This document shows, piece after piece, positions 13,875 through 27,342 of a stretch of DNA of 64,000 nucleotides; the stretch's first letter is position 1, and every line of letters starts with the position of its first letter. Origin of the DNA: a virus (lineage: Duplodnaviria; Caudoviricetes); IMG/VR virus record IMGVR_UViG_3300028886_000037, positions 128,001 through 192,000 of that record, one strand, 5' to 3'. The notes beneath the pieces were generated by a model. The model made no database searches and was not told where the DNA came from. It was given only the letters and a program-made list of their open reading frames with translations. A program made the translations under genes and the position numbers.

Positions 13875-14045
13875 TGAAGGCTCCTTGTTGAAGTTACATG
13901 ATCAATATAGGTATTTCCCTGAGAAATCTAAACCCCTAAAATCAAGAAAATCTACAAAAATAGGCAGACACAGTCACTGCCATGTCTGCCTGTATCGTCC
14001 TATTTGGCCCAGAACGATATTTGTTTTTCGGCTTTATCTGTGTAG

Positions 14046-14130
14046 TCCTCCAGGAGAGACTCGAACTCTCACGGGCATATTGCCCACCTGCCCCTCAAGC
14101 AGGCCCCTATACCAATTCGGGTACCGGAGG
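14046..14130 (-). tRNA. tRNA-Leu(GAG)
   Basis: cloverleaf, CCTGC-TT GAG GG-GCAGG, long variable arm. Confidence 0.9.
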
Positions 14131-14134
14131 AAAA

Positions 14135-14277
14135 CGAGATTCATTTTAGCGGACCGCCTCCTTTAACCACTTGGATATCTCCGCGAATGAGGTTGTTATG
14201 CGGAGAGACAGGATTCGAACCTGCGAAGGCGCAAGCCAGCGGTTTTACAGACCCTGGGAATTGCTGTTAGAATCTCT
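14135..14277 (-). ncRNA. ACAGCA-scaffold RNA E1 carrying circularly permuted tRNA-Tyr(GTA)
   Basis: GAGATTC/GAATCTC terminal stem + ACAGCAA; tRNA 3' half precedes 5' half. Confidence 0.8.
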
Positions 14278-14279
14278 AG

Positions 14280-14352
14280 CAGGGAAGACAGGATTTGAAC
14301 CCATACCTCGCAGATTTGGAGTCTCGTGTGCTGCCAGTTGCACCACTTCCCT
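14280..14352 (-). tRNA. tRNA-Trp(CCA)
   Basis: CT CCA AA loop; AGGGAAG/CTTCCCT, G73; imperfect anticodon stem. Confidence 0.8.
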
Positions 14353-14469
14353 GAATGCCTCTTTTGATCAATTTCAGAACTTGATCCTGCTGGTGGTAGT
14401 TTTCGATCACAGTGAAGTATCTCGAATTCACTGCTCTCTAGAGCAGAGGCTGAACCTTATCATTCCATA

Positions 14470-14542
14470 TTGCCCGTGATGGACTCGAACCACCGAATAC
14501 ACGAGTCAGAGTCGTGTGCCTTACCAACTTGGCGAACGGGCA
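14470..14542 (-). tRNA. tRNA-Gln(CTG)
   Basis: CACGA-CT CTG AC-TCGTG. Confidence 0.9.
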
Positions 14543-14549
14543 GAAAAAC

Positions 14550-14932
14550 ATGATAGGGACGCCGATCGTTGCTCATTTAAGGCTTATTGATCAGCCGCTG
14601 CTTCGTGTCTCTTCTCTCTTGATCCGAATAGCAGCTTACAAAAGATCAGTCAACGGTTTCTCGTTGACGCTATCTGGTGTGACCAGCACTATCTCTATTC
14701 TTATTAGAGCAAGCACCAAGTTCTTCGTCTTGGAACTAGTAGAGACTGGCATGACCTTACTGAGCAGTTTGCCCAGGAGTTAGACCGATGTTCTGACCAT
14801 CAGCCAAGGGAGCTGAGATTCAAGCTGTGCTGCTCAGCTCTCGCCCTGTCCTCGTTAGCCAAGGCAATTTCCAGTTGCTCTACGCTGCATCGGTTTGTAG
14901 GAATTAAGCTTTAGAGTTGCTGTGCCTATCAT
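14550..14932 (-). ncRNA. ACAGCA-scaffold RNA E2 with ~360-nt structured cargo
   Basis: ATGATAGG/CCTATCAT stem + ACAGCAA; internal hairpins; no minus-strand ORF. Confidence 0.6.
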
Positions 14933-14936
14933 TAAG

Positions 14937-15069
14937 AATCTCTGATGACGCATTACTGAGCTATCCTTTACGCGTTCTCAGCCACTATTCCGCAACTTAT
15001 GCTACTGCACTAGCCCCAAAAGGATCTACCTTGGACGGGCTTTTACTTACATCATCTTCATCAGTGATT
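14937..15069 (-). ncRNA. GATGTAAGTA-type stem RNA, copy 1
   Basis: AATCACTGATGA/TCATCAGAGATT outer stem; motif shared with 20624-20677. Confidence 0.45.
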
Positions 15070-15072
15070 TAG

Positions 15073-15146
15073 TCCCATAGCCGAGATTCGAACCCGAACT
15101 TCATGCGCCACAAGCATGCGTGCTAACCAATTAACACTACTGCGGG
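15073..15146 (-). tRNA. tRNA-His(GTG)
   Basis: CATGC-TT GTG GC-GCATG. Confidence 0.85.
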
Positions 15147-15151
15147 GATGT

Positions 15152-15238
15152 GTAACGAGAGCGTGATGGTGGGCAGTTTAGAACTGCCAAGAATCCTTGC
15201 GGATCACCATCTTCATTTCACCATCACGTTCTCGTTAC
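15152..15238 (-). ncRNA. long hairpin enclosing a T-arm-like module
   Basis: 20-bp outer stem enclosing ATCC-GCAA-GGAT and GGCAG-TTCTAAA-CTGCC. Confidence 0.55.
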
Positions 15239-15242
15239 TTAG

Positions 15243-15316
15243 TAGCTCTGTCGGGACTTGAACCCGAATTTCTAGCTTGAGAGGCTAACGAACTAAACCA
15301 GTTATTCGACGGAGCC
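15243..15316 (-). tRNA. tRNA-Glu(CTC)
   Basis: TTAGC-CT CTC AA-GCTAG. Confidence 0.9.
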
Positions 15317-15321
15317 AAAGA

Positions 15322-15440
15322 CGAGATTCACTTTAGCGGGACTCGAACCCGTAACCTCTTCACTATTTCAGTGAAGTGCTCTACCAATTGAGCTATTTTC
15401 CCAACGGCGGAAAAAACCAGAGTTTGCTGTTGGAATCTCT
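15322..15440 (-). ncRNA. ACAGCA-scaffold RNA E3 carrying an acceptor-less tRNA body
   Basis: GAGATTC/GAATCTC + ACAGCAA; D arm, CTTCACT-GAAAT-AGTGAAG arm and T arm, no acceptor stem. Confidence 0.75.
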
Positions 15441-15442
15441 AG

Positions 15443-15514
15443 AGCACCTAGCGAGGATCGAACTCGCGACTACAGTTTGGAAGACTATCATGTTAGCCAC
15501 TACACCATAGACGC
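15443..15514 (-). tRNA. tRNA-Gly(TCC)
   Basis: CT TCC AA loop, U73. Confidence 0.9.
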
Positions 15515-15520
15515 GGATGT

Positions 15521-16210
15521 TTAATTTATAGAGGAGAGGGTGGGATTCGAACCCACGGAGGTTTCCTCCTCATATAATTTAGTAAAATCATTTCCATACT
15601 TATTTTCGACGTATTCTAAGTATGGCTTAATCTCTCTTTTCGTAATAATCGAAAGCTCTTTAGGAAATTGGTCATATTTTGCTTGCCACTGCTTAGACCA
15701 ATATCCCTTCAATTCAACATATTTTCCATCGACTATGAAGTCTGGAAGATAGTTATATTCTTTGCCTTCGAATATGTACTTAAACTTTTCTTTGTTCCTT
15801 TCGAATTTTATTCCGTGTTCAAGATTATATATCACGTATGCTAGTTCCCAAGAGCTGTCGCAGAAATATCCTTTATACCAACCCTTCTTTCCACGACCAG
15901 ATCCTTTACGATAGCCACCTAATGTGTGCCTAATCTTATTAGTCTCTTTTATCTTTTGTCGTGTTTCTTCCGTTTGGGCATGTTTCTTATATTCGACCCT
16001 TTCTGGATTCTTATAACATCTTTTTTCATGGAATCTCAGTGTATGCTTATATTCAAAATAGTTTCCGCAAAATTTACAATTTCCACCTTTATTAAATAGG
16101 AATTTCTTATGCTCTTTTTTATGATTTTCAGACTTATGTTTCTGAAGATCTCTTCTACTAGTACCGACATATTCACAGAATGAACATGGCCAAGTGTATG
16201 ATAATCTCAT
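15521..16210 (-). CDS. Zn-finger + PD-(D/E)XK homing endonuclease
   Basis: C2H2 fingers; DSSWE..YLPDF..VELKGY; AT-rich; reads into the tRNA fragment. Confidence 0.85.
   Translation of the reverse strand: MRLSYTWPCSFCEYVGTSRRDLQKHKSENHKKEHKKFLFNKGGNCKFCGNYFEYKHTLRFHEKRCYKNPERVEYKKHAQTEETRQKIKETNKIRHTLGGYRKGSGRGKKGWYKGYFCDSSWELAYVIYNLEHGIKFERNKEKFKYIFEGKEYNYLPDFIVDGKYVELKGYWSKQWQAKYDQFPKELSIITKREIKPYLEYVENKYGNDFTKLYEEETSVGSNPTLSSIN
15532..15571 (-). pseudogene. 3' fragment of disrupted tRNA-Ser
   Basis: variable arm, T arm and CCTCTCC, complementary to GGAGAGG at 16391-16397. Confidence 0.8.
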
Positions 16211-16230
16211 ATTACTCTCTCAAAGAAGTA

Positions 16231-16318
16231 AAGCGGGTGTCCGATTCGAACGGACGAGAGGTTTTAACCTCTGCTTGGGTTCAGGCCAAGTGCGATAAAC
16301 CAACTCCGCCAACCCGCC
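16231..16318 (-). tRNA. tRNA-Ser(TGA), nested inside the insertion
   Basis: CTTGG-CC TGA AC-CCAAG, long variable arm. Confidence 0.85.
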
Positions 16319-16354
16319 ATAAATTATTTATACAATCAAGACTAGTGCTTTTTG

Positions 16355-16397
16355 CCAGTTTCAAATCCGGATCCATAAACCACTCGGACACCTCTCC
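16355..16397 (-). pseudogene. 5' fragment of disrupted tRNA-Ser(TGA)
   Basis: GGAGAGG-TG-TCCGAGTGGTTTATGGA-TCCGGA TT TGA AA CTGG, then unrelated sequence. Confidence 0.8.
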
Positions 16398-16404
16398 AAA
16401 GTAG

Positions 16405-16492
16405 AGGCGGGTGCAGGATTCGAACCTGCGGCTCCTTTATGGGGAGCAACTCGTTAGCACCGAGCCGGTTTAGACCACTCACCCAACCCGCC
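16405..16492 (-). tRNA. tRNA-Ser(GCT)
   Basis: GCTCG-GT GCT AA-CGAGT, long variable arm. Confidence 0.9.
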
Positions 16493-16495
16493 ATA

Positions 16496-16569
16496 TCCAC
16501 CCGCTAGGACTTGAACCTAGAACCTCGGGGTTATGAGTCCCTTGCACCAACCAATTGTGCTACAGATGG
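16496..16569 (-). tRNA. tRNA-Met or Ile2 (CAT)
   Basis: CT CAT AA loop. Confidence 0.8.
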
Positions 16570-16574
16570 GAATC

Positions 16575-16707
16575 AAGATGTCATCTGTGCTCCCGGGGCT
16601 GGACTCGAACCAGCAGCCTTCTGGCGTCTTACTGAGGAAGGTCCTCTGCGACAGCCGTTCTAACCAGTTGAACGTACCCTGGAAAATAGAATTGCGGTTG
16701 ACATCTT
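16575..16707 (-). ncRNA. scaffold RNA E4 (ACCGCAA variant) carrying an Asn-like tRNA with an expanded anticodon arm
   Basis: AAGATGTCA/TGACATCTT stem; D and T arms intact, anticodon arm enlarged by about 20 nt. Confidence 0.7.
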
Positions 16708-16714
16708 TTATTAG

Positions 16715-16761
16715 AGCTACCAGCAGGACTCGAACCTGCGAAGGGATGAACCCAGCAGATT
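16715..16761 (-). pseudogene. orphan 3' tRNA half (U73, long variable arm; Cys-like)
   Basis: AATCTGC-variable arm-GCAGG TTCGAGT CCTGC-TGGTAGC-T, starting at the endonuclease stop. Confidence 0.75.
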
Positions 16762-17374
16762 ATAACAATTTACTGAGGATTCCCTCTATATAGGTTCGTT
16801 TAGCCTCTTTAGGAAGACGTTGGTATTCGGACCAATTACAGCGTCCTAATAGCGTCCATCCTTGCTCCTTTAAATTCTCTGTTCTTTCTTCATCATGTAA
16901 TTTTCCTTTTGATGTGTAATGCGTCTTGCCATCAACTTCAAAATAAAGCTTTTTATCAGGCCATGCAAAATCTAACCAATAGGGTTTTACATAATAGTTA
17001 TTTTCAAATTTTACGTTCTCATTTGTAAAAATGTTAAACCAACTTTGCTCAGCATAACTTCGTTTTCGTCTTCCTATCCATGAACTTGCGCGTCCTTCTC
17101 TATGTGCTTTTTTCATTCCGAGAGAAATTCTTTTGCATATAGCTTCGGTGTTTTTATGTCCTTTACATCGCAGCTTATTTGGATTCTTCTCGCAATGCAT
17201 TTCATGTCTAGTCATTTCACCACGAGTAATATGCTTGATTTTACCGCAGTATTTACATTTTAAATCATATTTAGGTGCTTGGCCATTTTTAATCTTATGT
17301 TCTTCGCTTTTATGCTTATAGAGCTTTCTACGTGATTCGATTTCAGCACCGCAATGTTCGCATACCCAAATCAT
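16760..17374 (-). CDS. Zn-finger + DUF559/Vsr-like homing endonuclease
   Basis: YWLDFAWP..FEVDGKTH. Confidence 0.85.
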   Translation of the reverse strand: MIWVCEHCGAEIESRRKLYKHKSEEHKIKNGQAPKYDLKCKYCGKIKHITRGEMTRHEMHCEKNPNKLRCKGHKNTEAICKRISLGMKKAHREGRASSWIGRRKRSYAEQSWFNIFTNENVKFENNYYVKPYWLDFAWPDKKLYFEVDGKTHYTSKGKLHDEERTENLKEQGWTLLGRCNWSEYQRLPKEAKRTYIEGILSKLL

Positions 17375-17396
17375 TTTTATTTCTCCATTTTAGCTT

Positions 17397-17478
17397 TATA
17401 GTCGTTCCAGCGACCATATTATTTATAGCAGTTAGAAGAACTGGAGATGTTCCTCAGCTGGCTGGAACCAGTTGTCCC
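17397..17478 (-). promoter_or_regulatory. structured endonuclease leader copy 2
   Basis: GGGACA-hairpin(TTCCAG)-CTGA-hairpin-CTAAC-TATAAATA-hairpin(CTGGAA). Confidence 0.7.
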
Positions 17479-17487
17479 ACTATAGTA

Positions 17488-17575
17488 AGCGCTCAGTTGG
17501 ATTTGAACCAACGTGGAGATTTCTCTCAGCGGCTTTGCAGGCCGTGGTCTTCGACCAGGCTCGACCCATGAGCGC
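17488..17575 (-). tRNA. tRNA-Cys(GCA) with long variable arm
   Basis: CGGC-CT GCA AA-GCCG, U73. Confidence 0.85.
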
Positions 17576-17586
17576 ATATTGTTTAG

Positions 17587-17660
17587 TACTCCGTCCAAGA
17601 TTCGAACTTGGATCAAGGGCTTCGTAGGCCCGTATGCTGAGTCCATTACACCAACGGAGC
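17587..17660 (-). tRNA. tRNA-Arg(ACG)
   Basis: CT ACG AA loop. Confidence 0.9.
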
Positions 17661-17665
17661 ATAGT

Positions 17666-17781
17666 CAAGATAACGTCTTTTGAGCTGAGTCCTGAGCCAC
17701 TAGACGACACCGGTATACGCCGATGACTGGATTCGAACCAGTGTTGCAGCTTTGGGATAGTGAAGATGCTGTTGTTATCTT
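17666..17781 (-). ncRNA. ACAGCA-scaffold RNA E5 carrying a circularly permuted tRNA (CCC, Gly-like)
   Basis: AAGATAAC/GTTATCTT; TCCCAA-AGCTG, T arm, acceptor closed by loop, D arm, CAGCT. Confidence 0.8.
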
Positions 17782-17785
17782 ATAG

Positions 17786-17868
17786 TCCTCCAGGAGGGAC
17801 TTGAACCCTCACGCCATTTCTGGCACCAGTTCCTAAGACTGGCGTGTCTGCGATTCCACCACCAGAGG
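17786..17868 (-). tRNA. tRNA-Leu(TAG)
   Basis: CCAGT-CT TAG GA-ACTGG. Confidence 0.9.
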
Positions 17869-17872
17869 ATAG

Positions 17873-17945
17873 TGCCACCCCTCCGTAACGATCGGAGATC
17901 CTCGGATTTTCAGTCCGTTGCATAGACCATCTTTGCTAGAGTGGC
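17873..17945 (-). tRNA. tRNA-Phe(GAA)
   Basis: CT GAA AA loop; atypical T loop ATCGTTA. Confidence 0.8.
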
Positions 17946-17950
17946 ATAAT

Positions 17951-18008
17951 CGAGATTCTTTTGTTTCTTAACCAAAAAGAAGATTTTAGAGTTGCTGTAA
18001 GAACCTCT
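17951..18008 (-). ncRNA. minimal ACAGCA-scaffold RNA E6
   Basis: GAGGTTCTT/AAGAATCTC + ACAGCAA. Confidence 0.65.
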
Positions 18009-18011
18009 TAG

Positions 18012-18085
18012 TCGGCAACCTTGGACTTGAACCAAGAACCTCTGCCTTATCAGAGCAGTGCTCTAACCAATTGAGCTAGATGCCG
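18012..18085 (-). tRNA. tRNA-Ile(GAT)
   Basis: CT GAT AA loop. Confidence 0.9.
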
Positions 18086-18096
18086 ATAAAAAATTT

Positions 18097-18165
18097 CAAG
18101 ATCCATTTTTCTAACGTAGTCTGATTACCAATCGGATGTTATAAGAATTTTGCAGTTAGGATCTT
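18097..18165 (-). ncRNA. scaffold RNA E7 (ACTGCAA variant)
   Basis: AAGATCC/GGATCTT stem. Confidence 0.6.
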
Positions 18166-18171
18166 TAGTAG

Positions 18172-18200
18172 TCTCCGATCAGGGATTCGAACCCCGGACC
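18172..18200 (-). pseudogene. 3' fragment of disrupted tRNA (Val-like)
   Basis: T arm + ATCGGAG-A, pairing with CTCCGGT at 18963-18969. Confidence 0.8.
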
Positions 18201-18211
18201 TGAAACTTTTA

Positions 18212-18285
18212 TCTTCGACCTAGGACTTGAACCTAGAACATCCGTCTTGTAAGGGCGGCGCTCTAACCAATTGAGCTAGCCGAAG
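18212..18285 (-). tRNA. tRNA-Val(TAC), nested inside the insertion
   Basis: CCGCC-CT TAC AA-GACGG; overlaps the endonuclease stop. Confidence 0.9.
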
Positions 18286-18919
18286 TTACGAACGATTTAA
18301 TTGATGAAATTGCCTCTGAAGTATTTCTCATTATGTACTTCCAAGTCAATCTCAGACATTTCCAACCGTTCTCTTTGCAATAAGTGTCTTTTTCGACATC
18401 CATTGCTTTTCTGCTGGGCCATTCATGTTGAGATCCATCAATTTCCAGATAGATCTTTAATTCTGGCCAAGCAAAATCCATGAACCATTTGCCAAAATGA
18501 TATTCTTCAACAAATGGAAAATTAGAAAGCTCCGTTTCGAGTAACCTCTTTGTCCATTCTTCAGCATAAGATCTTTTACATTTACTTCTCGACGACCACC
18601 AGATTCCGCCATTTTCTTTTATCTGTTTCTTACGAATTTCAGATAGCTTCTTCTTTGTGGCTTCAGTATGTTTAGATCCCAAGCGTAAGGCATTTTCGCC
18701 TGAATACCTTTTGCTAAAAGTTTCACTTGCTTGTTTTACTCTCGGATCATTATCCTTAGTTAGTCCTTTGTTCCAAGAAGGATGAGATTTAGAAAAGCCG
18801 TGTTCATCTTTGTGATGTTTCTGGAGTTCTCGTCTCGTTCTACCAACGAACGGACAATACTTGCAGCACCAGTCACCAGATGCGTTTTTCTGTTTTCTCT
18901 CTTTCTCATATCTTCCCAT
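18263..18919 (-). CDS. Zn-finger + NUMOD3 + DUF559-like homing endonuclease
   Basis: SWNKGLTK; WFMDFAWP..LEIDGSQH. Confidence 0.85.
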   Translation of the reverse strand: MGRYEKERKQKNASGDWCCKYCPFVGRTRRELQKHHKDEHGFSKSHPSWNKGLTKDNDPRVKQASETFSKRYSGENALRLGSKHTEATKKKLSEIRKKQIKENGGIWWSSRSKCKRSYAEEWTKRLLETELSNFPFVEEYHFGKWFMDFAWPELKIYLEIDGSQHEWPSRKAMDVEKDTYCKENGWKCLRLTWKYIMRNTSEAISSIKSFVTSASSIG

Positions 18920-18933
18920 ATTTTATTTATAGG

Positions 18934-18969
18934 AAGGATGGCACTCTGAACCAGCTGAGTTAACCGGAG
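18934..18969 (-). pseudogene. 5' fragment of disrupted tRNA (Val-like)
   Basis: CTCCGGT-TA-D arm-CCATC-CTT, then TATAAATA. Confidence 0.8.
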
Positions 18970-18975
18970 AGATAG

Positions 18976-19049
18976 TGCCCCACCAAGGACTTGAACCTTG
19001 AACTCTCTGCTTAAGAGGCAGATACTCTAACCAATTGAGTTAGTGAGGC
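18976..19049 (-). tRNA. tRNA-Lys(CTT)
   Basis: TCTGC-CT CTT AA-GCAGA. Confidence 0.9.
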
Positions 19050-19055
19050 ATATAG

Positions 19056-19128
19056 TTCCGGTAGCAGGGATCGAACCTGCGACTTTCTCCGTATGAAGGA
19101 GATGCTCTACCAACTGAGCTATACCGGG
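19056..19128 (-). tRNA. tRNA-Met(CAT)
   Basis: TCTCC-TT CAT AC-GGAGA. Confidence 0.85.
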
Positions 19129-19198
19129 GGGAAATCCACTGGCAGTTTGTGAGATACTGCCTAAACTCCTGAGGGCTACCTCAGAAAGCTAAAAGATA

Positions 19199-19270
19199 CG
19201 AGATAGAGTGGCCTTGCGCCACGAAACCGCATGATGGAGCAGAGGGGTGAAACTTGCTGTGTCTATCTCA
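19199..19270 (-). ncRNA. ACAGCA-scaffold RNA E8
   Basis: GAGATAGA/TCTATCTC + ACAGCAA; GCAA tetraloop hairpin. Confidence 0.65.
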
Positions 19271-19277
19271 AATTTAG

Positions 19278-19351
19278 TAGCGCCATCGGGACTCGAACCC
19301 GAATTTCCGACTTGAAAGGCCGGTGAACTGAACCAGTTATTCGATGGCGCC
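19278..19351 (-). tRNA. tRNA-Glu(TTC)
   Basis: CT TTC AA loop. Confidence 0.9.
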
Positions 19352-19356
19352 AAAAG

Positions 19357-19465
19357 CGAGATACGTTCTTTGTGTATAGCCCATCTGACTTTCGTCAGAC
19401 TTGCAGCTTTTCAGCTTATGGATTCGAACCACTTACAGTAAGAAATCATTGCTGTTTGTATCTCT
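19357..19465 (-). ncRNA. ACAGCA-scaffold RNA E9 with a T arm and two GAAA hairpins
   Basis: GAGATAC/GTATCTC; GTGG-TTCGAAT-CCAT; AGCT-GAAA-AGCT; TCTGAC-GAAA-GTCAGA. Confidence 0.7.
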
Positions 19466-19595
19466 TTTTCAAATGTGTCAGATACGGCGGATTCGAACCG
19501 CGATCTCAGACGTTGCGACATCTGGGACTTTTTGCACCGTCTCCACGACGGGACCGAAGCTACCTGCTTGTCAGAAGAGATAGAGTTCGCAACCT

Positions 19596-20414
19596 CTAAA
19601 ACTTCCTATCGGTACATATCCTACGCTTAGTAGCGGGACCGGGACTAGAGTCCCGGTCAGAAATGCTAAAACTTTCTTGAATTTTGATAGTCTGTAATAA
19701 TCTGAAAATTTCGTTTTCTCTTTCAATTTTAGAAAGTTTTTGAAATTCAGACCATCTAATTCTTTTTAAGAGCATCCAACCGTTTTCTATTAAAAATTCC
19801 GTTCTGATCTTGTCGTGTTCGATACCTTCTTTAGTATAGTGCTGTTCTCCATCAACTTCAATGTATATTTTTGATTTAGTCCATGCAAAATCTAAAGTAT
19901 ATCGGCCAACTTGATGTTGAGTTTCGGCATCTGTAAATATAGTTTCAAAATACTCTTCAGCATAAGATTTTCTTTTGTTTAACCAATTACAGTGTGTACC
20001 GCTAAGATTTTTAATAGCTGCATCTGATAATTTCCTTTTAGTTTCATCCGAAGTTTTATGACCTTGCCAAATTTGCTTATTCGGATTTTCTTTACAAAAC
20101 TTTTCGTGTCTTGTTAAATCGCAAGCTCTTTTATAAATTAAACCACAGAATTGACAAGGTATGTTTAAATCTGGATGATAGCCATAGAATTTACCTTTGA
20201 TTTCGTTAATATGTCCTTCTTTGCGATGCTGTTGTAATCTACTTCGTGAATGAAAATCATTGCCACAAATTGAACATTTCCAAATTTTAGAATTCTTTTG
20301 TATTCCTCTATTCGGATTTTTAAGACACTGCTTAGAAATGTGTGTTCCTAATTGTGCCCCAGTAGTAAACTCCATGTTACAAAATTTACATATATGTTTT
20401 ATTTCCAATTCCAT
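19596..20414 (-). CDS. multi-Zn-finger + DUF559-like homing endonuclease
   Basis: three C2H2-like fingers; YTLDFAW..IEVDGEQH; start MELEIK after TATAAATA. Confidence 0.85.
   Translation of the reverse strand: MELEIKHICKFCNMEFTTGAQLGTHISKQCLKNPNRGIQKNSKIWKCSICGNDFHSRSRLQQHRKEGHINEIKGKFYGYHPDLNIPCQFCGLIYKRACDLTRHEKFCKENPNKQIWQGHKTSDETKRKLSDAAIKNLSGTHCNWLNKRKSYAEEYFETIFTDAETQHQVGRYTLDFAWTKSKIYIEVDGEQHYTKEGIEHDKIRTEFLIENGWMLLKRIRWSEFQKLSKIERENEIFRLLQTIKIQESFSISDRDSSPGPATKRRICTDRKF
19631..19657 (-). pseudogene. degenerate 3' fragment of initiator-type tRNA
   Basis: CCGGG..CCCGG-TCCCGCT-A, same 3' end as the intact fMet. Confidence 0.55.
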
Positions 20415-20453
20415 ATAGTATTTATAACATGAGCTAACCACTGCTCTAAATTA

Positions 20454-20537
20454 TAGCGGGAGCCAGAGTCGGACTGGCACAAGCATTATCTGTCCCTGGG
20501 TTATGAGCCCAGTATCTTACCATTAGACTATCCCGCG
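20454..20537 (-). tRNA. initiator tRNA-fMet(CAT) with enlarged variable region
   Basis: C1 mismatch; CTGGG-CT CAT AA-CCCAG. Confidence 0.8.
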
Positions 20538-20544
20538 ATAATAG

Positions 20545-20619
20545 TGGACCGTAAGGGAATCGAACCCTTGACATCCAGCTTGCAAAGCTGGCGCTCTACC
20601 AAAACTGAGCTAACAGCCC
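20545..20619 (-). tRNA. tRNA-Ala(TGC)
   Basis: G3.U70; TT TGC AA. Confidence 0.9.
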
Positions 20620-20623
20620 GAAA

Positions 20624-20677
20624 GAATCTGTGAATGGCTCTGACCTCGAAAGGTTCTCCGTACTTACATCACAGATT
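20624..20677 (-). ncRNA. GATGTAAGTA-type stem RNA, copy 2
   Basis: AATCTGTGA/TCACAGATT outer stem. Confidence 0.45.
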
Positions 20678-20681
20678 TTAG

Positions 20682-20754
20682 CTGTCCCACCTGGACTCGA
20701 ACCAGGGACGGGGTGATTAACAGTCACCTACTCTACCAACTGAGCTATGGGACA
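20682..20754 (-). tRNA. tRNA-Asn(GTT)
   Basis: GGTGA-CT GTT AA-TCACC, G73. Confidence 0.9.
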
Positions 20755-20771
20755 TTAAAGATAAAGCCGAA

Positions 20772-20812
20772 GATTTCAATATGCAGATCGGATTCTCGAT
20801 CCAGATCTTTTT
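20772..20812 (-). promoter_or_regulatory. boxB/boxA-like leader (also 24049-24087 and 26360-26395)
   Basis: AGATC..hairpin..GATCTGCATATTGA repeated three times ahead of tRNA runs. Confidence 0.6.
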
Positions 20813-20894
20813 TGTTTGATTCTAATATAGAAACTTCTTTCGGGTTTGTAAACCCTCTTTCTCAGAATTTTTTGAGAAAGTTGTTTATTTATAG

Positions 20895-20967
20895 CTCCCT
20901 GTGGACGACTTGAACGACCGACATCGAAATTACAAATTTCGCGTTCTACCAACTGAACTAACAGGGA
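20895..20967 (-). tRNA. tRNA-Thr(TGT)
   Basis: CGAAA-TT TGT AA-TTTCG. Confidence 0.85.
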
Positions 20968-21052
20968 ATAAGAGCGCTGAGGATATGAGTGAAAAGCTAT
21001 CTCGAGTTCACAGTTCATCGGATATCCTCTCTAAGCATCCTCATCTTCACGT

Positions 21053-21127
21053 GATCGACGAGTGGATTGGAACCACCGCACCAGGCCCCGAATGGGCCTG
21101 CGCTCTACCATGCTGAGCTACGAAGAT
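21053..21127 (-). pseudogene. aberrant tRNA-like element (Pro-like)
   Basis: D and T arms present; 7-bp anticodon stem with 5-nt loop; poor acceptor stem. Confidence 0.55.
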
Positions 21128-21156
21128 ACGTCCTTGAATTCAGACGCTTAGATTAG

Positions 21157-21240
21157 TGGGTAAGGTAGGATTCGAACCTACTAAGCCCGAAGGCAACGGC
21201 TTTACAGGCCGCCCCAACTCACCATCGTTGGCGCTTACCC
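21157..21240 (-). tRNA. tRNA-Tyr(GTA)
   Basis: GCGGC-CT GTA AA-GCCGT, long variable arm. Confidence 0.9.
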
Positions 21241-21528
21241 TTGTACGGCCGGTCATTTATAGTCTTGTGACCGAAGACTTTACCCAACTCACGCTTATGC
21301 CGTTATTTTTCGCGATAGAACCATCACATGTGATGGTAGAATCGAATTCAAGATTCCAGCGGCCTGGTCAGGATGCTTATGCCTATGCTCTCCCCTGACT
21401 CCTTCACAGCCTTCGTCCGCTTGTCTATACGGACTTCTGCTGATCAACCAGTAAGCGCCCTTCCATTGGATCCAATTGACGGCGAAGTAGCGCTCAATGT
21501 AGCGGCCTTTGCAAGGATGGCGACTCCA

Positions 21529-22230
21529 CTATTGCCAGAGTCTCTCCTTCAATTCATAGCGGGACCGATGGGATTCGAACCCACAGCCTCCAGCCTTATT
21601 TTCATAAAGCATTTCTATTCGTTCAGTCCCGTATTTTTTATAAACGTACTCTAAATACTTTTTCATCTCTCTTCTATATAGGACGATTAACGGATATTTG
21701 AAAGTTCTTAATTTTTCCTCCCATCTATTATTTCTACGTCCTTTTATTTCATAATATGTATCGCCTATTTTAAAATCAGGATAGTATTTATGGATTTCTC
21801 CATTGCTTACATATTCAAAGCCTATTTTATTTCTCTCAAATTCTATTCCGTGATCTAAATTATAAATTACGAAAGCTAATTCCCAACGTGAATTGCAATA
21901 AAAGCCTTTATACCATCCAGAATAAATAGTACCAGATTTTTCTCTATAACCACCGCATCCAGCAGCTTTAGAAGTCTCTCTTAACTTCTCTTTTAATTCG
22001 TCCGTCATTCTATGCTTTCTATAGCAATCTTTACAAAATCCGGTCGAATTACGATTATCTAAAGATTTTCCGCAGTCTTTACAAAATCTCTTTTCAGTTT
22101 TTGAAAATAGTTTTGATAGTCTTCTCTTTAGTTCTTCTGTTCTTATTCTGCTATTAGCGCATGCTCTTGAGCAGAATCTTCCGCTTCCAAAAGAGCCATC
22201 ATGCTCTTTTCCACATTTTTCGCAGATCAT
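21529..22230 (-). CDS. Zn-finger + PD-(D/E)XK homing endonuclease
   Basis: CEKCG..RFCSRAC; NSRWE..YYPDF..YEIKGR. Confidence 0.85.
   Translation of the reverse strand: MICEKCGKEHDGSFGSGRFCSRACANSRIRTEELKRRLSKLFSKTEKRFCKDCGKSLDNRNSTGFCKDCYRKHRMTDELKEKLRETSKAAGCGGYREKSGTIYSGWYKGFYCNSRWELAFVIYNLDHGIEFERNKIGFEYVSNGEIHKYYPDFKIGDTYYEIKGRRNNRWEEKLRTFKYPLIVLYRREMKKYLEYVYKKYGTERIEMLYENKAGGCGFESHRSRYELKERLWQ
21560..21595 (-). pseudogene. orphan 3' half of tRNA (Asp-like)
   Basis: GGCTGG-AGGCT-GTGGG TTCGAAT CCCAT-CGGTCCC-G73, inside the endonuclease 3' end. Confidence 0.75.
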
Positions 22231-22254
22231 ATAGCCTCTTTTAACTTTATTTTA

Positions 22255-22339
22255 ACGAGGATCCTTCCATATCCTCGTATTATTTATAGAGGTTAGATCG
22301 AATGGCGAATTCGATCAGGAGGTGGAAGCCTCTTGTCCC
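22255..22339 (-). promoter_or_regulatory. structured endonuclease leader copy 3
   Basis: GGGACA-hairpin(CTTCCA)-CTGA-hairpin-CTAAC-TATAAATA-hairpin(TGGAAG). Confidence 0.7.
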
Positions 22340-22348
22340 TCTTTTTAA

Positions 22349-22422
22349 CGATGCCGGCGAGATTCGAACTCGCGTATGTCGGTTAGACAGACCGATGTGT
22401 TAGGCCACTTCACCACGGCACC
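22349..22422 (-). tRNA. tRNA-Asp(GTC)
   Basis: TCGGT-CT GTC TA-ACCGA, G73. Confidence 0.9.
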
Positions 22423-22427
22423 AGAGA

Positions 22428-23290
22428 CGAGATAGTTTTTCTTACGCGCTCTACCAGTTGAGCTACCTCACAGCATGGCTGCAAGGACGTTAAAATACAC
22501 ATCTCAATAATATCTTCCTATTAGTAATTTATCAGAACTAAAAGCCGATGAATTACAAATATATTCTTTATATTTTGGTATATAACACTTAAATAATCTT
22601 ACAATTTCTGGCAAAAGAGGAATGTTTTCTAATTTTGCAAATTCTCTAATTGACTTATAATTTCCAGAATGGAAATAGTCCCATAATTCCCTTGCTCTAT
22701 TAAATGCACTTATTTTACTTTTGTTAAAGAGTATACTATTTTCTCCTCTAAATAGATTTCTTCCAAGAACCCAATCCTTATTAGGTAAAATTTTGAATTT
22801 TTTGCATTCTCCATTGATTCTATTCGTATACCATTTAGTTCCGTATTGTGAATTTTTATTTCCTTTTTGTTTCAATTTCATACTTTCAGAAACGTATTTT
22901 GCAAATTCTGTTCTAAGCTTTTCGTATGCTCTAGAATTCATATAACGACTCTTATCTTCTGTAGGATGTCCTCTCATCCTCCAGAAGGCATACATCATTT
23001 TTCTTCTCTCATCTGTTCCCTTCTTGAATATCTTTACCAATAGCCAATGACAGAGGAAATGCTCTCTAGCAGTCAAAGGAACTAAGTTATCACGTTGATC
23101 CGATCCTCCTAAAGAACTAGGAAGAATATGATGTTCTTCATAATAACCTTCCGGTTTTCCTCTTATCTTTGCCCTATATACTATTTTCAGATAAACTTTT
23201 CTATAATCCATGTATTATTTATACATTTCATATCTCGAACCCGCAACATCGGTCTTAACAGGACATTTGAGAGTTGCTGTAACTACCTCT
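22428..23290 (-). ncRNA. ACAGCA-scaffold RNA E10 (permuted Asn-like tRNA) interrupted in its T loop by an HNH gene
   Basis: halves 23234-23290 and 22428-22489; GAGGTAGTT/AACTATCTC stem. Confidence 0.75.
22504..23211 (-). CDS. HNH homing endonuclease
   Basis: EEHHILPSSLGGSD..NLVPLTAREHFLCHWLL; TATAAATA upstream. Confidence 0.9.
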   Translation of the reverse strand: MDYRKVYLKIVYRAKIRGKPEGYYEEHHILPSSLGGSDQRDNLVPLTAREHFLCHWLLVKIFKKGTDERRKMMYAFWRMRGHPTEDKSRYMNSRAYEKLRTEFAKYVSESMKLKQKGNKNSQYGTKWYTNRINGECKKFKILPNKDWVLGRNLFRGENSILFNKSKISAFNRARELWDYFHSGNYKSIREFAKLENIPLLPEIVRLFKCYIPKYKEYICNSSAFSSDKLLIGRYY

Positions 23291-23340
23291 AAAATTCAAA
23301 CTGACCCTACTCACCTCAACGCGTCTTATTGGCTTTCAGT

Positions 23341-23412
23341 TAGCGCATGCGAGACTCGAACTCGCAGCCAGCGGCTTTCGACCGCCCGTTCTTCCATTGA
23401 ACGATATGCGTT
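23341..23412 (-). pseudogene. aberrant tRNA-like element (GAA in a non-canonical loop)
   Basis: D and T arms present; GGCGG-TC GAA AG-CCGCT lacks U33. Confidence 0.55.
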
Positions 23413-23427
23413 ATCAGTTAAACACAG

Positions 23428-23500
23428 CGCTGGAAGACAGGCTCGAACTGCCGATCGTCTGCTTACGAAGCAGCTGCTCTACCAGCTGAGCTATTCCAGC
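23428..23500 (-). tRNA. tRNA-Thr(CGT)
   Basis: TT CGT AA loop. Confidence 0.85.
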
Positions 23501-23700
23501 GAATAAGAGTACCGGACCCGAGTTTCTTTCCAGAGCGTCCTCTAGTCTTACGCTCGGGTCCTAGATCAAATCGTGCAGTATGGCAGTGAGGTTGGTCTCC
23601 TTCTCACATCTACGGCGCTAATGCTTAAATCGACCAAAGTGTCGAACCGTGCTCTTTTTATAGACATCTAAGCTATGCCTTGCACAATGTTGATCGTTAG

Positions 23701-23774
23701 TCGGGCATGCAGGATTCGAACCTGCGACCTGGTGCTCCCAAAGCATCCGCTCTACCAGACTGAGCTAATGCCCG
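23701..23774 (-). tRNA. tRNA-Pro(TGG)
   Basis: TT TGG GA loop; CGG/CCG-A acceptor. Confidence 0.9.
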
Positions 23775-23959
23775 ATGACGCCAGTACTAATTCTTGCATG
23801 AAAGTTCCTGACTTGCGAATCTCCTATACTGAAAGAAAATATATCCGCGACGATCGGATGCACTTTGTAGTCCACGTCCAGAGTATGCAACCTCCAGAGC
23901 GTAGAGCCTCTGTTCTTACCACAGTTCATTTTCTATCGCCAGTGTGATCGGCCATTTAG

Positions 23960-24033
23960 TGGACACAGATGGGGTTCGAACCCATGACCCTCTGCTTGCT
24001 AAGCAGATGTTCTACCAGCTGAACTACTGGCCC
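23960..24033 (-). tRNA. tRNA-Ala(AGC) with bulged acceptor
   Basis: TCTGC-TT AGC AA-GCAGA; G3.U70. Confidence 0.7.
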
Positions 24034-24167
24034 ATAAGAAGTTTCCGGTTTTTCAATATGCAGATCCGGTTCTCGACTGGATCTTTTGTTGTTGATCAAA
24101 ATATACTAAAACGAAGCGGAGTTGTAAATACCTCCGCTTCAAAAAATTTGAATTTTTTTGATGGAGG

Positions 24168-24575
24168 TTACCTGATAGGATCCTTGAGCATGTTTAGATA
24201 CTTCAGAGAGCAGAAGGCATCCTTCAGAACGTGGCGCTTGTTGTAGTACTTGATCTGCCATTCGAACTTGCGGTATGGACGGTAACCGAGCAGCTGAGCT
24301 TCTGTGCCGTCTTCGCAGCGGAACCAATGACCGATAGGACTCTGACCTTCTAGCGAAGTTCCCTTGAGCATATCCTTGAGCTGATCAAGAACATAGCCTG
24401 GAATCTTTGCGTCTCCCGAGGCGTCTACTTCTGCCAGCTCTAGAATGCACTTAGCTTCGTAGTCGCTGTACTTGAATGAGATTCCGTTGAGACGGAGGTT
24501 GTTCTCCTTTGCCCAGTCCTTGAGCACCGGATTGAGTTGTTCGCGGAGAGAGTCGCACTTGCTAGAATTGAACAT
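24168..24575 (-). CDS. hypothetical protein
   Basis: ORF with AAGGA RBS after TATAAATA. Confidence 0.65.
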   Translation of the reverse strand: MFNSSKCDSLREQLNPVLKDWAKENNLRLNGISFKYSDYEAKCILELAEVDASGDAKIPGYVLDQLKDMLKGTSLEGQSPIGHWFRCEDGTEAQLLGYRPYRKFEWQIKYYNKRHVLKDAFCSLKYLNMLKDPIR

Positions 24576-24608
24576 GTCTTTATCCTTGTTGTGTTTGTTT
24601 ATTTATAG

Positions 24609-24699
24609 TTGAGCAGGCTGGATTCGAACCAGCGACGGAGGAACTTCCTCTCTAGTGGCTTCAAAGGCCACCGCCTTGACCAGACTTGGCGACTGCCCA
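24609..24699 (-). tRNA. tRNA-Gln(TTG) with long variable arm
   Basis: GTGGC-CT TTG AA-GCCAC; U1-A72. Confidence 0.8.
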
Positions 24700-24705
24700 A
24701 GATAG

Positions 24706-24788
24706 TAGCCGAGGAGAGACTCGAACTCTCACGAGGTTGCCCTCCATGAATTTTAAGTTCACTGCGTCTTCCGTTCCGCCACTCGGCC
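24706..24788 (-). tRNA. tRNA-Leu(TAA)
   Basis: CT TAA AA loop, long variable arm. Confidence 0.9.
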
Positions 24789-24794
24789 AGATTC

Positions 24795-24986
24795 TTAGAA
24801 GAACTGGCGTTGTAACTTGAGCTGGCGCTTCTCAGCTTCGATCTTGTTTCGTTCCTTCTTGACCTTTCCGAGATCGATGCCTGCCTGCTTAGCGAAGCTC
24901 AGAGCCTTCTTTGACTGCTTAGCCCAGCGAGCGTTCTTCTGTTCCATCGTCTCTTCGACTCGTTCTTTCTTTTCCTTCGGTTTCAT
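24795..24986 (-). CDS. small basic protein
   Basis: 63-aa Lys/Arg-rich ORF, GGAG RBS, late promoter. Confidence 0.6.
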   Translation of the reverse strand: MKPKEKKERVEETMEQKNARWAKQSKKALSFAKQAGIDLGKVKKERNKIEAEKRQLKLQRQFF

Positions 24987-25019
24987 AAGATCTCCAAGTT
25001 TTTAGTGTTGTATTTATAG

Positions 25020-25091
25020 TGCGGGTGGCGGGGTTCGAACCCACGACTCGAAGATTAAAATTTAGTACTCTACCAACTGAGTTACACCCAC
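25020..25091 (-). pseudogene. tRNA-Lys(TTT) with broken anticodon stem
   Basis: acceptor, D and T arms intact; CTAAA cannot pair with TCTTC. Confidence 0.7.
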
Positions 25092-25200
25092 GAGTTCTGC
25101 TTCTTTATCCAAGGGATGCAGACAGACCTTGTACGATGAACGGCAGTTTGGTGTGAGCTCGTTCGGGGTATCATGTGAGCTCATTGCCGTTCGCTCATAG

Positions 25201-25280
25201 TACGCCAGGCGGGCTTCGAACCCGCATTTGCAGCTCCAGTTACGGCTAACGGATTAGAAGTCCGACCCGGCTACTGGCGT
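25201..25280 (-). ncRNA. D-armless tRNA-Arg(TCT)-like RNA
   Basis: acceptor, anticodon and T arms present; D-loop-like AACTGGA hairpin in the variable position. Confidence 0.7.
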
Positions 25281-25289
25281 ATGTGTTTC

Positions 25290-25574
25290 TTAGACGCGAG
25301 ATCGAATCTTCTTGAGATCGAACTTCATCGCGGGATAGGTGCAGAAGCCAGAGAAGCCGCAGACTTCGTCGAGTTCTTCAGCTACGCCGTCTTCCGTGAG
25401 AACTTTCACGATGTCGGGCCAGTTGTTGTCGTCAACGAAAGCGCAGTCTTTGGGGAGCTTTTCGCTCTGCCCTTGCAGATAGACGGTAGCGACGCCGTAA
25501 GGACTGCCATCGTCGTTGTTCGCCATCACAGCTAGAGTCTGGCCGTAGTCGTATTTCGATCTTACCCATTCCAT
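25290..25574 (-). CDS. DUF4313-like protein
   Basis: AFVDDNN..SGFCTYP..F motif. Confidence 0.7.
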   Translation of the reverse strand: MEWVRSKYDYGQTLAVMANNDDGSPYGVATVYLQGQSEKLPKDCAFVDDNNWPDIVKVLTEDGVAEELDEVCGFSGFCTYPAMKFDLKKIRSRV

Positions 25575-25577
25575 GTG

Positions 25578-25919
25578 TTAGTCCTCCAAGAAGTCTTCGA
25601 AGTGTTCTTCAGTGACCGGTTCCACGTACTCGTAATTGTCGGAGTGAACCGTAGTGCCGAGGAAGGTCTTGAAGTTGTTGGACCAGAAGCTGTCGCCGTC
25701 CACGTAAGCGTAGTACTTCGGGAAGCAGCCGACCTTCTGGTAGACGTGCTTCATGAGAGCCTTGCCCTCATCCACGTCCTTGACCGTAGCTTCGATTGCG
25801 TCATCTTGGCAGATAACTCCGAGCCAGGTCATGCGGGCAGTCGGATTGACTTCTTTAGCCGCAGCCTGAAGTTCTTTGAGGTGATTGGTTTTGCCGATGA
25901 AGACGATTCGAAAAAGCAT
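25578..25919 (-). CDS. hypothetical early protein
   Basis: ORF after early promoter. Confidence 0.65.
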   Translation of the reverse strand: MLFRIVFIGKTNHLKELQAAAKEVNPTARMTWLGVICQDDAIEATVKDVDEGKALMKHVYQKVGCFPKYYAYVDGDSFWSNNFKTFLGTTVHSDNYEYVEPVTEEHFEDFLED

Positions 25920-26018
25920 AGCTTATTTCCTTGTTGAAGGTTTATCTCTTTTACATTGTAATTATAGCTTTTTCTCGACGTTTTGTAAACCCCAAAAATG
26001 AAGTTTTTTTCAAAATAG

Positions 26019-26091
26019 TCAGCGTGAGTGGGAACGATCCACTGACCTCACCGCCCCGAACGGTGCGCTCTACCAGCTGAGCTACACGCTG
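26019..26091 (-). tRNA. tRNA-Pro(CGG)
   Basis: CACCG-TT CGG GG-CGGTG. Confidence 0.9.
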
Positions 26092-26098
26092 AAATTAG

Positions 26099-26174
26099 CT
26101 GGGAAGGCAGGATTCGAACCTGCGATTTCTAGGGCATTACAGTGCCGTGGCATACCAGACTTGCCGACAACCCA
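26099..26174 (-). pseudogene. aberrant tRNA (Gln-like body, 6-nt CTGTAA loop)
   Basis: D and T arms present; mismatched acceptor. Confidence 0.55.
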
Positions 26175-26180
26175 ATGTAG

Positions 26181-26255
26181 TGGAGACGAAGGGAATCGAA
26201 CCCTTCACAGCCTGATTGCAAGTCAAGCTCGCCATCCTTGGTAACATGCATCCCC
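26181..26255 (-). tRNA. tRNA-Ala(TGC) copy 2, atypical D arm
   Basis: GGGGATG/CGTCTCC-A; CT TGC AA. Confidence 0.75.
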
Positions 26256-26259
26256 ATAG

Positions 26260-26342
26260 TCGGTACGGAAGGACTCGAACCTTCACGCCTTGCGGCATTC
26301 GATTTTGAATCGAACGTGTCTACCCTATTCCACCACGTACCG
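26260..26342 (-). tRNA. tRNA-Leu(CAA)
   Basis: TTCGA-TT CAA AA-TCGAA. Confidence 0.9.
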
Positions 26343-26404
26343 ATAAAGATAAAGCCGAATTGTCAATATGCAGATCTGCTTCACGAGCCGATCTTGTAGG
26401 TATC

Positions 26405-26439
26405 AAAAGAAAAAGAGGAAGTCGAACTGACTTCCTCTT
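26405..26439 (-). terminator. intrinsic terminator with a competing antiterminator
   Basis: AAGAGGAAGTC-AGTTC-GACTTCCTCTT-TTTCTTTT. Confidence 0.8.
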
Positions 26440-26466
26440 GAAATTTCGATACCAGATGGAAGTCAG

Positions 26467-26598
26467 CTATGGACTGATTGGCTTTGCTGCGATGTTGTTG
26501 TCTCTGCAGGCCAATTCAAAATCGAGTCCGCTATTCGGCGCAACAGCCAATTTGTAGTTGGCTTTGCCTTGATAAGATGTGATAGCGGTCAATTTCAT
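26467..26598 (-). CDS. 43-aa candidate leader peptide (not in ORF track)
   Basis: MKLTAITSYQGKANYKLAVAPNSGLDFELACRDNNIAAKPISP; stop abuts the antiterminator. Confidence 0.5.
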   Translation of the reverse strand: MKLTAITSYQGKANYKLAVAPNSGLDFELACRDNNIAAKPISP

Positions 26599-26692
26599 TT
26601 TTGTGTCCAGTGCTGTTTCCAGCTTGTTACGTTTTATTTATACGACAATATAGATAACTTTTTGTGCTTTTCGATGTAAAACTTTGTTTACA

Positions 26693-27121: not shown

Positions 27122-27193
27122 TTGAAAACCTCTTTAGATTTGTACTTGTTATTTATAGAAAAAAGACTCTCAGTTTCCCGAGAGTCTTGATAG

Positions 27194-27266
27194 CAGCGCC
27201 TACCGGAGTCGAACCGGTGTTACAGCCTTGAGAGGGCCGTGTCCTAGGCCACTAGACGAAGGCGCC
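27194..27266 (-). tRNA. tRNA-Glu(CTC) copy 2
   Basis: CGGCC-CT CTC AA-GGCTG. Confidence 0.9.
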
Positions 27267-27342
27267 GTAGCGAGATCAGTGTTGTTGCACTTACTTCACC
27301 TGTGCGGTACATCGCAGCCTTTTCAACTTTATCTCTTTGTAG

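Follow-up and report, generated by a model that had tools for sequence, protein, structure and literature searches.

What breaks a transfer RNA (tRNA) gene in two at its anticodon, and what becomes of the function served by that gene? The question is raised by a locus of the Caudoviricetes virus IMGVR_UViG_3300028886_000037. The stretch of DNA analyzed here (64,000 nt; henceforth the window) spans bases 128001-192000 of this 247.9-kb IMG/VR record, which is about 98% complete. At window positions 18172-18969, within an array of tRNA genes, a gene for tRNA-Val(UAC) is split after position 34 by a 722-bp segment (18212-18933) encoding a nuclease and a second, complete tRNA-Val(UAC). The segment is in all likelihood a mobile homing-endonuclease cassette, which carries along a replacement tRNA instead of relying on splicing. 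Sequence statements on the cassette refer throughout to the minus strand.

The elements found at the locus are, in order, tRNA-Lys(ctt), the 5' half of tRNA-Val, the dinucleotide CC, the motif TATAAATA, the tetranucleotide AAAT, the nuclease open reading frame (ORF), an overlapping tRNA-Val(tac), and the 3' part of the old tRNA-Val gene. The 5' half (18934-18969, canonical positions 1-34) was read directly from the 36 nt CTCCGGT TA ACTC AGCTGGTTCA GAGT G CCATC CT T, and extends from the acceptor strand through the D arm and the 5' side of the anticodon stem into the loop, as far as position 34. As the first-pass annotation had it, this half ends in CCATC-CT-T, and is followed within 2 nt by TATAAATA. 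The cassette starts there (18924-18933), with CC at 18933-18932 and TATAAATA at 18931-18924, 4 nt (AAAT) before the ATG, at 18919, of the nuclease gene (18263-18919). The latter encodes a 218-aa protein featuring a C2H2 zinc finger, a NUMOD3-like helix and a DUF559/Vsr-like catalytic domain. Its stop codon (TAG, 18265-18263) falls within the D loop of the cassette-borne tRNA-Val(UAC) (18212-18285; found by ARAGORN, Rfam tRNA score 59.3 bits). The overlap of stop codon and tRNA, also noted at first reading, extends over 23 nt, and the 5' end of the tRNA doubles as the final codons and stop of the nuclease. Past the tRNA, the 3' junction (18197-18211) is made up by T and AAAAGTTTCAGGTC, corresponding to resident positions 35-48 with four cassette-linked substitutions, as seen upon alignment to the empty allele described below. 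The T arm, the 3' acceptor strand and A73 of the resident gene follow at 18172-18196 (CGGGG TTCGAAT CCCTG ATCGGAG A from 18196 to 18172). The acceptor strands of the two halves pair at all 7 positions.

The empty allele, which the first-pass annotation proposed to look for in related genomes, resides in locus L033, part of G005, a complete 243,336-bp phage with terminal repeats. A first pattern derived from the 3' half (AGGTCCGGGG...) had no match in IMG/VR, because it contained the cassette-linked A45G change. Once those bases were dropped and the pattern was limited to the T arm and acceptor strand, L033 was retrieved. The L033 array is collinear with the window in blocks of 78-95% identity, and the local order is the same in both (Met-cat, Lys-ctt, Val-tac, a conserved spacer RNA, Ile-gat, Leu-tag, Arg-acg, Cys-gca). 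The L033 tRNA-Val gene is uninterrupted, carries the anticodon TAC and no other (CTCCGGT TA ACTC AGCGGTTA GAGT G CCATC CT TAC AA GTTGG AAGTC CGGGG TTCGAAT CCCTG ATCGGAG A), and is identical to the two window halves in the acceptor and T arms, including the entire 18172-18196 remnant. In BLAST, window 18970-18934 matches L033 7492-7526, and window 18211-17584 matches L033 7526-8152. The halves therefore abut in one intact tRNA-Val(TAC), the arrangement is not due to chance, and the 722-bp insertion lies precisely between T34 and A35, with a one-base ambiguity (T), which bears out the notion of an insertion at the anticodon.

The 5' half is 94.6% identical to the syntenic L033 gene over a 37-column BLAST alignment, which includes 2 gap columns in the D loop. 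Its positions 8-34 are identical to those of the intact Val(TAC) genes of L001/L002, and intact Val(TAC) genes with the same 5' half were found in five further phage contigs (L001/L002, L020, L024, L025). The 14 bases after the insertion are positions 35-48 of the resident gene, carrying the changes C36A, G42T, G43C and A45G relative to L033, which abolish the anticodon and the inner stem of the old gene. A deletion of positions 35-43 was rejected, since the L033 alignment shows these positions present, if substituted. No orthologue of the nuclease was found in G005, only a 33%-identical paralogue. The window and L033/G005 thus differ by a presence/absence polymorphism at a syntenic site.

The cassette is mobile between alleles. 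The nuclease cluster includes 33 members at 90% identity, which reside in at least 5 contexts. In context A (window, L006, L007) the cassette lies behind Lys-ctt; in context B (L008, L009) the upstream DNA is unrelated; context C (L010) is found in a 258-kb phage, behind an Ile cassette; context D (L012-L017) corresponds to a different phage type with other neighbour genes; context E is represented by L011. The architecture is alike in every context, and so is the position within tRNA-Val at which the cassette sits. The junction falls after T34 in four contexts, and is one T shorter in two (L010, L011). The outer parts of the halves are allele-specific yet complementary, as a result of compensatory changes. 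Acceptor strands are CTCCGGT/ATCGGAG in contexts A, B, C and E and AGCCGGT/ACCGGCT in D; T stems are CGGGG/CCCTG, CAAGG/CCTTG or ATAGG/CCTAT, D stems ACTC/GAGT or GCTC/GAGC. Position 32 is either C or T, matching the intact alleles of the L001 and L025 types, and the halves match different intact Val alleles of other phages. Over 633 nt, two synonymous changes separate the nuclease gene of the window from that of L008, the upstream DNAs being unrelated; L010 and L011 have identical coding sequences, and differ in the upstream DNA, in one D-loop base and in the T stem. The window and context D are about 90-95% identical over 18964-18205, and similarity is random outside the tRNA halves. Every context shares C36A, G42T, G43C and A45G, none of which is found in the empty allele; a co-conversion tract would leave this pattern. 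Taken as a pattern, these are population signatures of homing into distinct, once-functional alleles. A distant BLAST search of the region against a phage GenBank collection gave generic tRNA matches only, and a metagenome scan returned one contig, already in the set.

The same data bear on the foremost alternative, according to which a single ancient illegitimate insertion took place, the block was later moved by ordinary recombination in shuffled arrays, and the nuclease was kept for some other job, such as excluding competing phages, with no homing involved. The tRNA arrays of these phages are heavily rearranged, and the flank next to the junction does not vary between contexts, as a single origin would have it. 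The changes paired across the 750-bp insert (acceptor pairs 1-72 and 2-71) match distinct intact alleles, however, and compensatory halves of this kind require entry into different once-functional genes. Identical or near-identical cassettes lodged in differing alleles (L010/L011, window/L008) and the presence/absence polymorphism at the syntenic site argue against a single insertion as well, and we regard it as improbable.

The 218-aa ORF matches DUF559 in Pfam (2e-10); its C2H2 match is weak, its NUMOD3 match weak and sub-threshold. Homing or HNH endonuclease families were hit in PHROGs. A profile of 31 homologues matches the DUF559 structure 3hrl (3e-9) and classical C2H2 fingers, and DUF559 is the closest family by sequence. 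A search by Foldseek with the AlphaFold model of the protein (predicted local distance difference test score of 80) retrieved the catalytic domain of I-Bth0305I (3r3p; template modeling score 0.79-0.81, root-mean-square deviation 2.8 A over about 100 residues), with further matches to 3hrl and Vsr (1vsr/1cw0). Residues D148, E159, D161, H165 and D174 are invariant across the 31 homologues, and are candidates for the conserved catalytic E, D, H and D residues of the I-Bth0305I family (D196/N208/H213/D222 in I-Bth0305I). The gene is free-standing inside the cassette, with no intron or intein around it, and the protein resembles at most the Hef-type (free-standing) Vsr-like members. The ratio of nonsynonymous to synonymous substitution rates (dN/dS) between contexts is 0.07-0.12 (dS 0.36-0.72), and the protein is therefore under purifying selection. 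A search of IMG/VR with the nuclease protein yielded only a 44% relative, differently arranged.

Homing could proceed as follows. In mixed infections the nuclease would cut the tRNA-Val(UAC) gene of cassette-free phages within the region of the anticodon stem-loop. The break would be repaired from the cassette-bearing genome, the tRNA halves serving as homology arms, and the cassette would be copied in between positions 34 and 35, with destruction of the resident gene. The cassette tRNA-Val, which departs from the target on either side of the anticodon stem as well as in the variable loop, would then take over, and presumably is not cut. Harm to the host would be avoided by bringing a replacement, not by splicing. 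The nuclease is the probable maker of the cut, and the cut position given here is a predicted one. The dimeric I-Bth0305I cuts at a pseudopalindrome adjoining its insertion site (PMC3239194). As the DNA of an anticodon stem-loop is pseudopalindromic too, with the insertion at its centre, the nuclease may by analogy work as a dimer, reading both strands of the anticodon stem and cutting in the loop.

The replacement role, already assigned to the cassette tRNA in the first-pass annotation, is in line with its being the sole tRNA-Val among the 37 tRNAs of the genome. The cassette tRNA-Val has A35, C36 and A73. It differs from the 28-bp target at 7 positions, including the symmetric pairs 29:41 and 30:40 and the variable loop. 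The nearest matches to the target in its own genome have 7 mismatches, the cassette tRNA-Val being tied with tRNA-Ala(tgc), a distance which, judged from sequence, is compatible with self-immunity of the cassette genome. The cassette tRNA is predicted to be both resistant and functional. Its anticodon arm, used as query, retrieved only an ordinary Val gene, in a 352-kb phage. The 23-nt target has one occurrence in bacterial and archaeal genomes, on a tRNA-array contig binned with a metagenome-assembled genome (MAG), which indicates that the target is a phage-array sequence and not a host tRNA. The syntenic site of L032 hosts a hybrid tRNA-Val(TAC) (oriented locus, 6488-6564), which agrees with the window remnant in the T arm and 3' acceptor strand but has another D arm and another anticodon stem (TCTGT/ACAGA); the gene may be a naturally resistant target allele.

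The association of nuclease and tRNA is old. The fusion of ORF end and tRNA-Val(TAC) is kept in homologues at 64% (L026) and 56% (L038) identity, so that the two make up an old, tightly linked pair. In both L026 and L038 the pair is found behind a truncated Val-type 5' fragment, and the 3' half is lost. In L026, L029 and L038 the 5' half is truncated in or after the D arm. Old insertions undergo decay, as expected of debris. In homologues at 44-45% identity (L003:3660-3760; L039) an odd tRNA-like sequence is located downstream, featuring a TTTACAA loop (anticodon TAC) and a T arm, and giving no ARAGORN call.

Such decay bears on a second alternative, in which the flanking fragments are RNA modules under selection, for instance as cargo of ACAGCAA-type scaffold RNAs nearby, or as hairpins serving the cassette tRNA in processing or termination. 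Directly downstream there is indeed a structured spacer RNA, conserved also in L033 and L032, and in every context the 3' half retains a paired T-arm hairpin. The recent descent of the halves from intact alleles accounts for the pairing, however, the 5' half does not adjoin any scaffold element, and loss of the 3' half (L026, L038) and truncation of the 5' half (L026, L029, L038) are what decaying debris would show, which makes this explanation very unlikely. The weakest alternative, that the interrupted gene still works, with the 722-nt insert removed as an intron, e.g. of group I, or the halves joined in trans, can be practically discounted: group I introns with homing endonuclease genes do occur in bacterial tRNA anticodon loops, and neither the acceptor arm nor the T arm of the halves is damaged, but no Rfam intron family matched, either at gathering threshold or at E values up to 10, ORF and tRNA occupy the insert so fully that a ribozyme core would not fit, UAA would be the anticodon after rejoining of the exons, and the 3' strand GTTTC fails to pair with CCATC at 3/5 stem positions. 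A functional intron or split tRNA was thus excluded on three grounds, the missing ribozyme, the lack of space for it, and the failure of the stem to pair.

The spacer just mentioned (18086-18171, minus strand) lies right after the broken Val gene, and features a closing stem AAGATCC...GGATCTT with TAACTGCAAA. In L033 and L032 it has likewise been retained downstream of an intact Val gene, and the Val gene of L024 has an element of this type after it.

The motif TATAAATA, the T4 late-promoter consensus, which gives the cassette a portable late-promoter-like signal, occurs 19 times in the window versus 1.1 expected, and 17 of the 19 copies are on the minus (coding) strand. The 4-nt spacing seen in the cassette is found ahead of other nuclease ORFs too, both in the array and in relatives. 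TATAAATA lies exactly 4 nt before a nuclease ATG, with no Shine-Dalgarno sequence, at window 18920-18931, 20407-20426 and 23212-23223, at 3151-3166 in L010, and in L029 and L038. In the ordinary late genes of the window it is located 25-50 nt upstream, along with a ribosome-binding site. At window 23224-23250 a T arm cut inside its loop is found immediately ahead of TATAAATA.

Several points weigh against a homing cassette with a same-identity, resistant replacement tRNA. If TATAAATA is a promoter, a 4-nt spacing would imply a leaderless or near-leaderless nuclease mRNA. Resistance of the cassette tRNA is predicted solely from the 7 differences in 28 bp. In context D (L012-L017) the cassette tRNA has C33 (CCCCTACAAG) and not the near-universal U33, which puts its function in doubt. 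L029, at 56% identity, carries a tRNA-Ile behind a Val-like 5' fragment, so that the clade has an exception to the same-identity rule. Finally, the upstream Lys allele and a 127-nt spacer differ between window and L033, so that other rearrangements must have happened at the locus.

Cassettes of related design were found at other tRNA genes. The Ser cassette of the window (15521-16403, minus strand) starts with the 5' part of an old Ser gene through the anticodon stem, followed by TATAAATA, tRNA-Ser(tga) and a 229-aa ORF, the end of which extends into the remains of the old gene (variable arm, T arm and acceptor strand); the order of tRNA and ORF is thus opposite to that of the Val cassette, as reported in the first-pass annotation. 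The 229-aa ORF features a C2H2 finger and a weak T7 endonuclease I-like match (Pfam). The Val and Ser nucleases share only a 39-aa C2H2 finger (the first zinc finger), and the catalytic domains are different, DUF559/Vsr-like in Val, T7 endonuclease I-like in Ser. An apparent intact homologue of the broken Ser gene is found in L010 (6067-6156). The Ile cassette, detected in L010 (3117-3940) and in L032 (just after its tRNA-Val), has the Val-type order. The resident tRNA-Ile is split just after GAT, and TATAAATACAAT, a 223-aa nuclease, a new tRNA-Ile(gat) overlapping the nuclease stop codon, and the old 3' half follow. The Ile gene is uninterrupted at the syntenic place both in the window (18011-18085) and in L033. 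The Ile-cassette nuclease has a T7 endonuclease I-like domain, and is 54% identical to the Ser-cassette ORF. A Ser-type domain in a cassette with the Val order means that gene order and nuclease type assort independently, a result which supports assembly from shared modules on separate occasions. The suggestion that the Val and Ser cassettes were assembled independently holds, with the nuance that both use the same zinc finger and the same TATAAATA signal.

Parts of the picture are known from other systems. T4 SegB is a free-standing GIY-YIG homing endonuclease encoded in a tRNA gene cluster (PMC2330249). Like SegB, the nuclease studied here is a phage homing endonuclease (a predicted one), which targets tRNA-gene DNA and resides inside a tRNA array. 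SegB drives its own inheritance and that of neighbouring tRNA genes in mixed infections. It lies between genes and interrupts nothing, recognizes the T-loop motif, cleaves a large number of tRNA genes at the 3' end, and brings about replacement of a region by co-conversion. The Val cassette, in contrast, sits inside one tRNA gene (34/35), leaves both halves in place, carries a same-identity tRNA fused to the ORF, and uses another nuclease family. A Vsr-like fold, an N-terminal NUMOD-type DNA-binding region and phage origin are shared with the EDxHD/Vsr-like enzymes (I-Bth0305I, phage Hef; PMC3239194). I-Bth0305I is however encoded in a self-splicing group I intron in recA, and the Val-cassette ORF has neither intron nor intein, belongs by sequence to the DUF559 branch (3hrl), and features a classical C2H2 finger.

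Group I introns with endonuclease genes are located in the anticodon loops of tRNA-fMet, with I-Ssp6803I, and of cyanobacterial tRNA-Leu(UAA), between 34 and 35 (review PMC3984707). Target gene, insertion in the anticodon loop and spread by endonuclease-driven gene conversion (the last proposed here) are features in common. Those introns, however, neutralize the insertion by RNA splicing, whereas the Val cassette has no ribozyme, and a second complete tRNA gene compensates. In atp6 of Allomyces macrogynus, and in other fungal mitochondrial cases, an endonuclease gene brings along a replacement gene end. There too the invader carries a substitute for the displaced part of the host gene, and the old part is left stranded. 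What is replaced in frame in these cases is the 3' end of a protein gene; in the Val cassette it is a whole RNA gene, and both old ends remain. Integrase islands and prophages targeting tRNA genes likewise preserve tRNA function. They feature an integrase and att repeats of tens of bases, and restore only the displaced 3' segment; the Val cassette has no integrase, a junction ambiguity of 1 nt and a complete new tRNA. Hallmarks of such islands are missing, as the cassette contains the nuclease ORF and the tRNA only, and the overlap at the junction is one base.

HNH endonuclease genes located beside tRNA arrays have been described (PMC8421152). A literature search found no paper on an endonuclease cassette which splits a tRNA gene and carries a complete tRNA of the same identity. 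Homing endonuclease genes are thought to persist in essential genes only by means of self-splicing introns or inteins, or else to settle between genes. The Val cassette would exemplify a third way to be harmless, in which the gene is broken and a spare, predicted to be resistant, is brought along. The natural evidence is unusually complete, since both the filled and the empty allele, a number of independent recipient alleles and a co-converted flank are at hand. The cassette offers an explanation for the tRNA arrays of giant phages, which are scrambled, littered with fragments and rich in nuclease genes, and shows a route by which tRNA alleles whose anticodon stems are altered pass from phage to phage, which may matter for escape from host anticodon nucleases. 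A modular C2H2 finger joined to a Vsr-like domain, with a natural target of 20-30 bp, makes the protein a candidate programmable site-specific enzyme.

More tentatively, and with somewhat less than even confidence in the proposal taken as a whole, cassettes made up by an endonuclease and a replacement tRNA could form a general, undescribed class of selfish elements which persist by replacement, not by splicing. If so, such cassettes would drive turnover, scrambling and fragment litter in phage tRNA arrays. The genome would come to depend on the cassette tRNA (addiction), because the resident gene is destroyed and its flank mutated, and the endonuclease would escape the usual cycle of decay. 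The overlap of ORF stop codon and tRNA would couple processing by RNase P to shut-off of nuclease synthesis.

The array hosting the Val cassette comprises 37 tRNA genes on the minus strand, within window 14045-27415 (ARAGORN, Rfam); no tRNA gene was found outside the array when the whole 247.9-kb genome was scanned. Many tRNA fragments are found between the array genes, and six ORFs of 204-281 aa are scattered through it. Three of them (204, 218 and 281 aa) feature a DUF559/Vsr-like nuclease domain and weak C2H2-finger matches (Pfam; four ORFs scanned), two of these three having also weak NUMOD3 matches. Next to these and to the Ser-cassette ORF, the remaining two fall into endonuclease or homing-endonuclease families (scanned in PHROGs only). 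Around the other four nuclease ORFs there are further orphan halves of tRNAs, along with partial arms (19352-19595, 17661-17784, 16570-16759, 22424-22503, 23212-23338).

Four tRNAs of the array, the cassette tRNA-Val (18212-18285), Ile(gat) (18011-18085), Lys(ctt) (18975-19049) and one Met(cat) (16496-16569), have in common a AATTGGTTA/G D loop and a TTCAAGT T loop, and may be of common foreign origin. The broken Val gene is of the AGCTGGTTCA/TTCGAAT type, unlike these tRNAs. A member of the nuclease protein cluster is annotated in a Fibrobacter MAG, and a strong match to the cow-rumen-2 RNA motif (RF02947, 98 bits) is found at window 39394-39500; the two together hint at a rumen phage. At window 25019-25091 resides a tRNA with anticodon TTA (Rfam, 51.6 bits), which would read the stop codon UAA.

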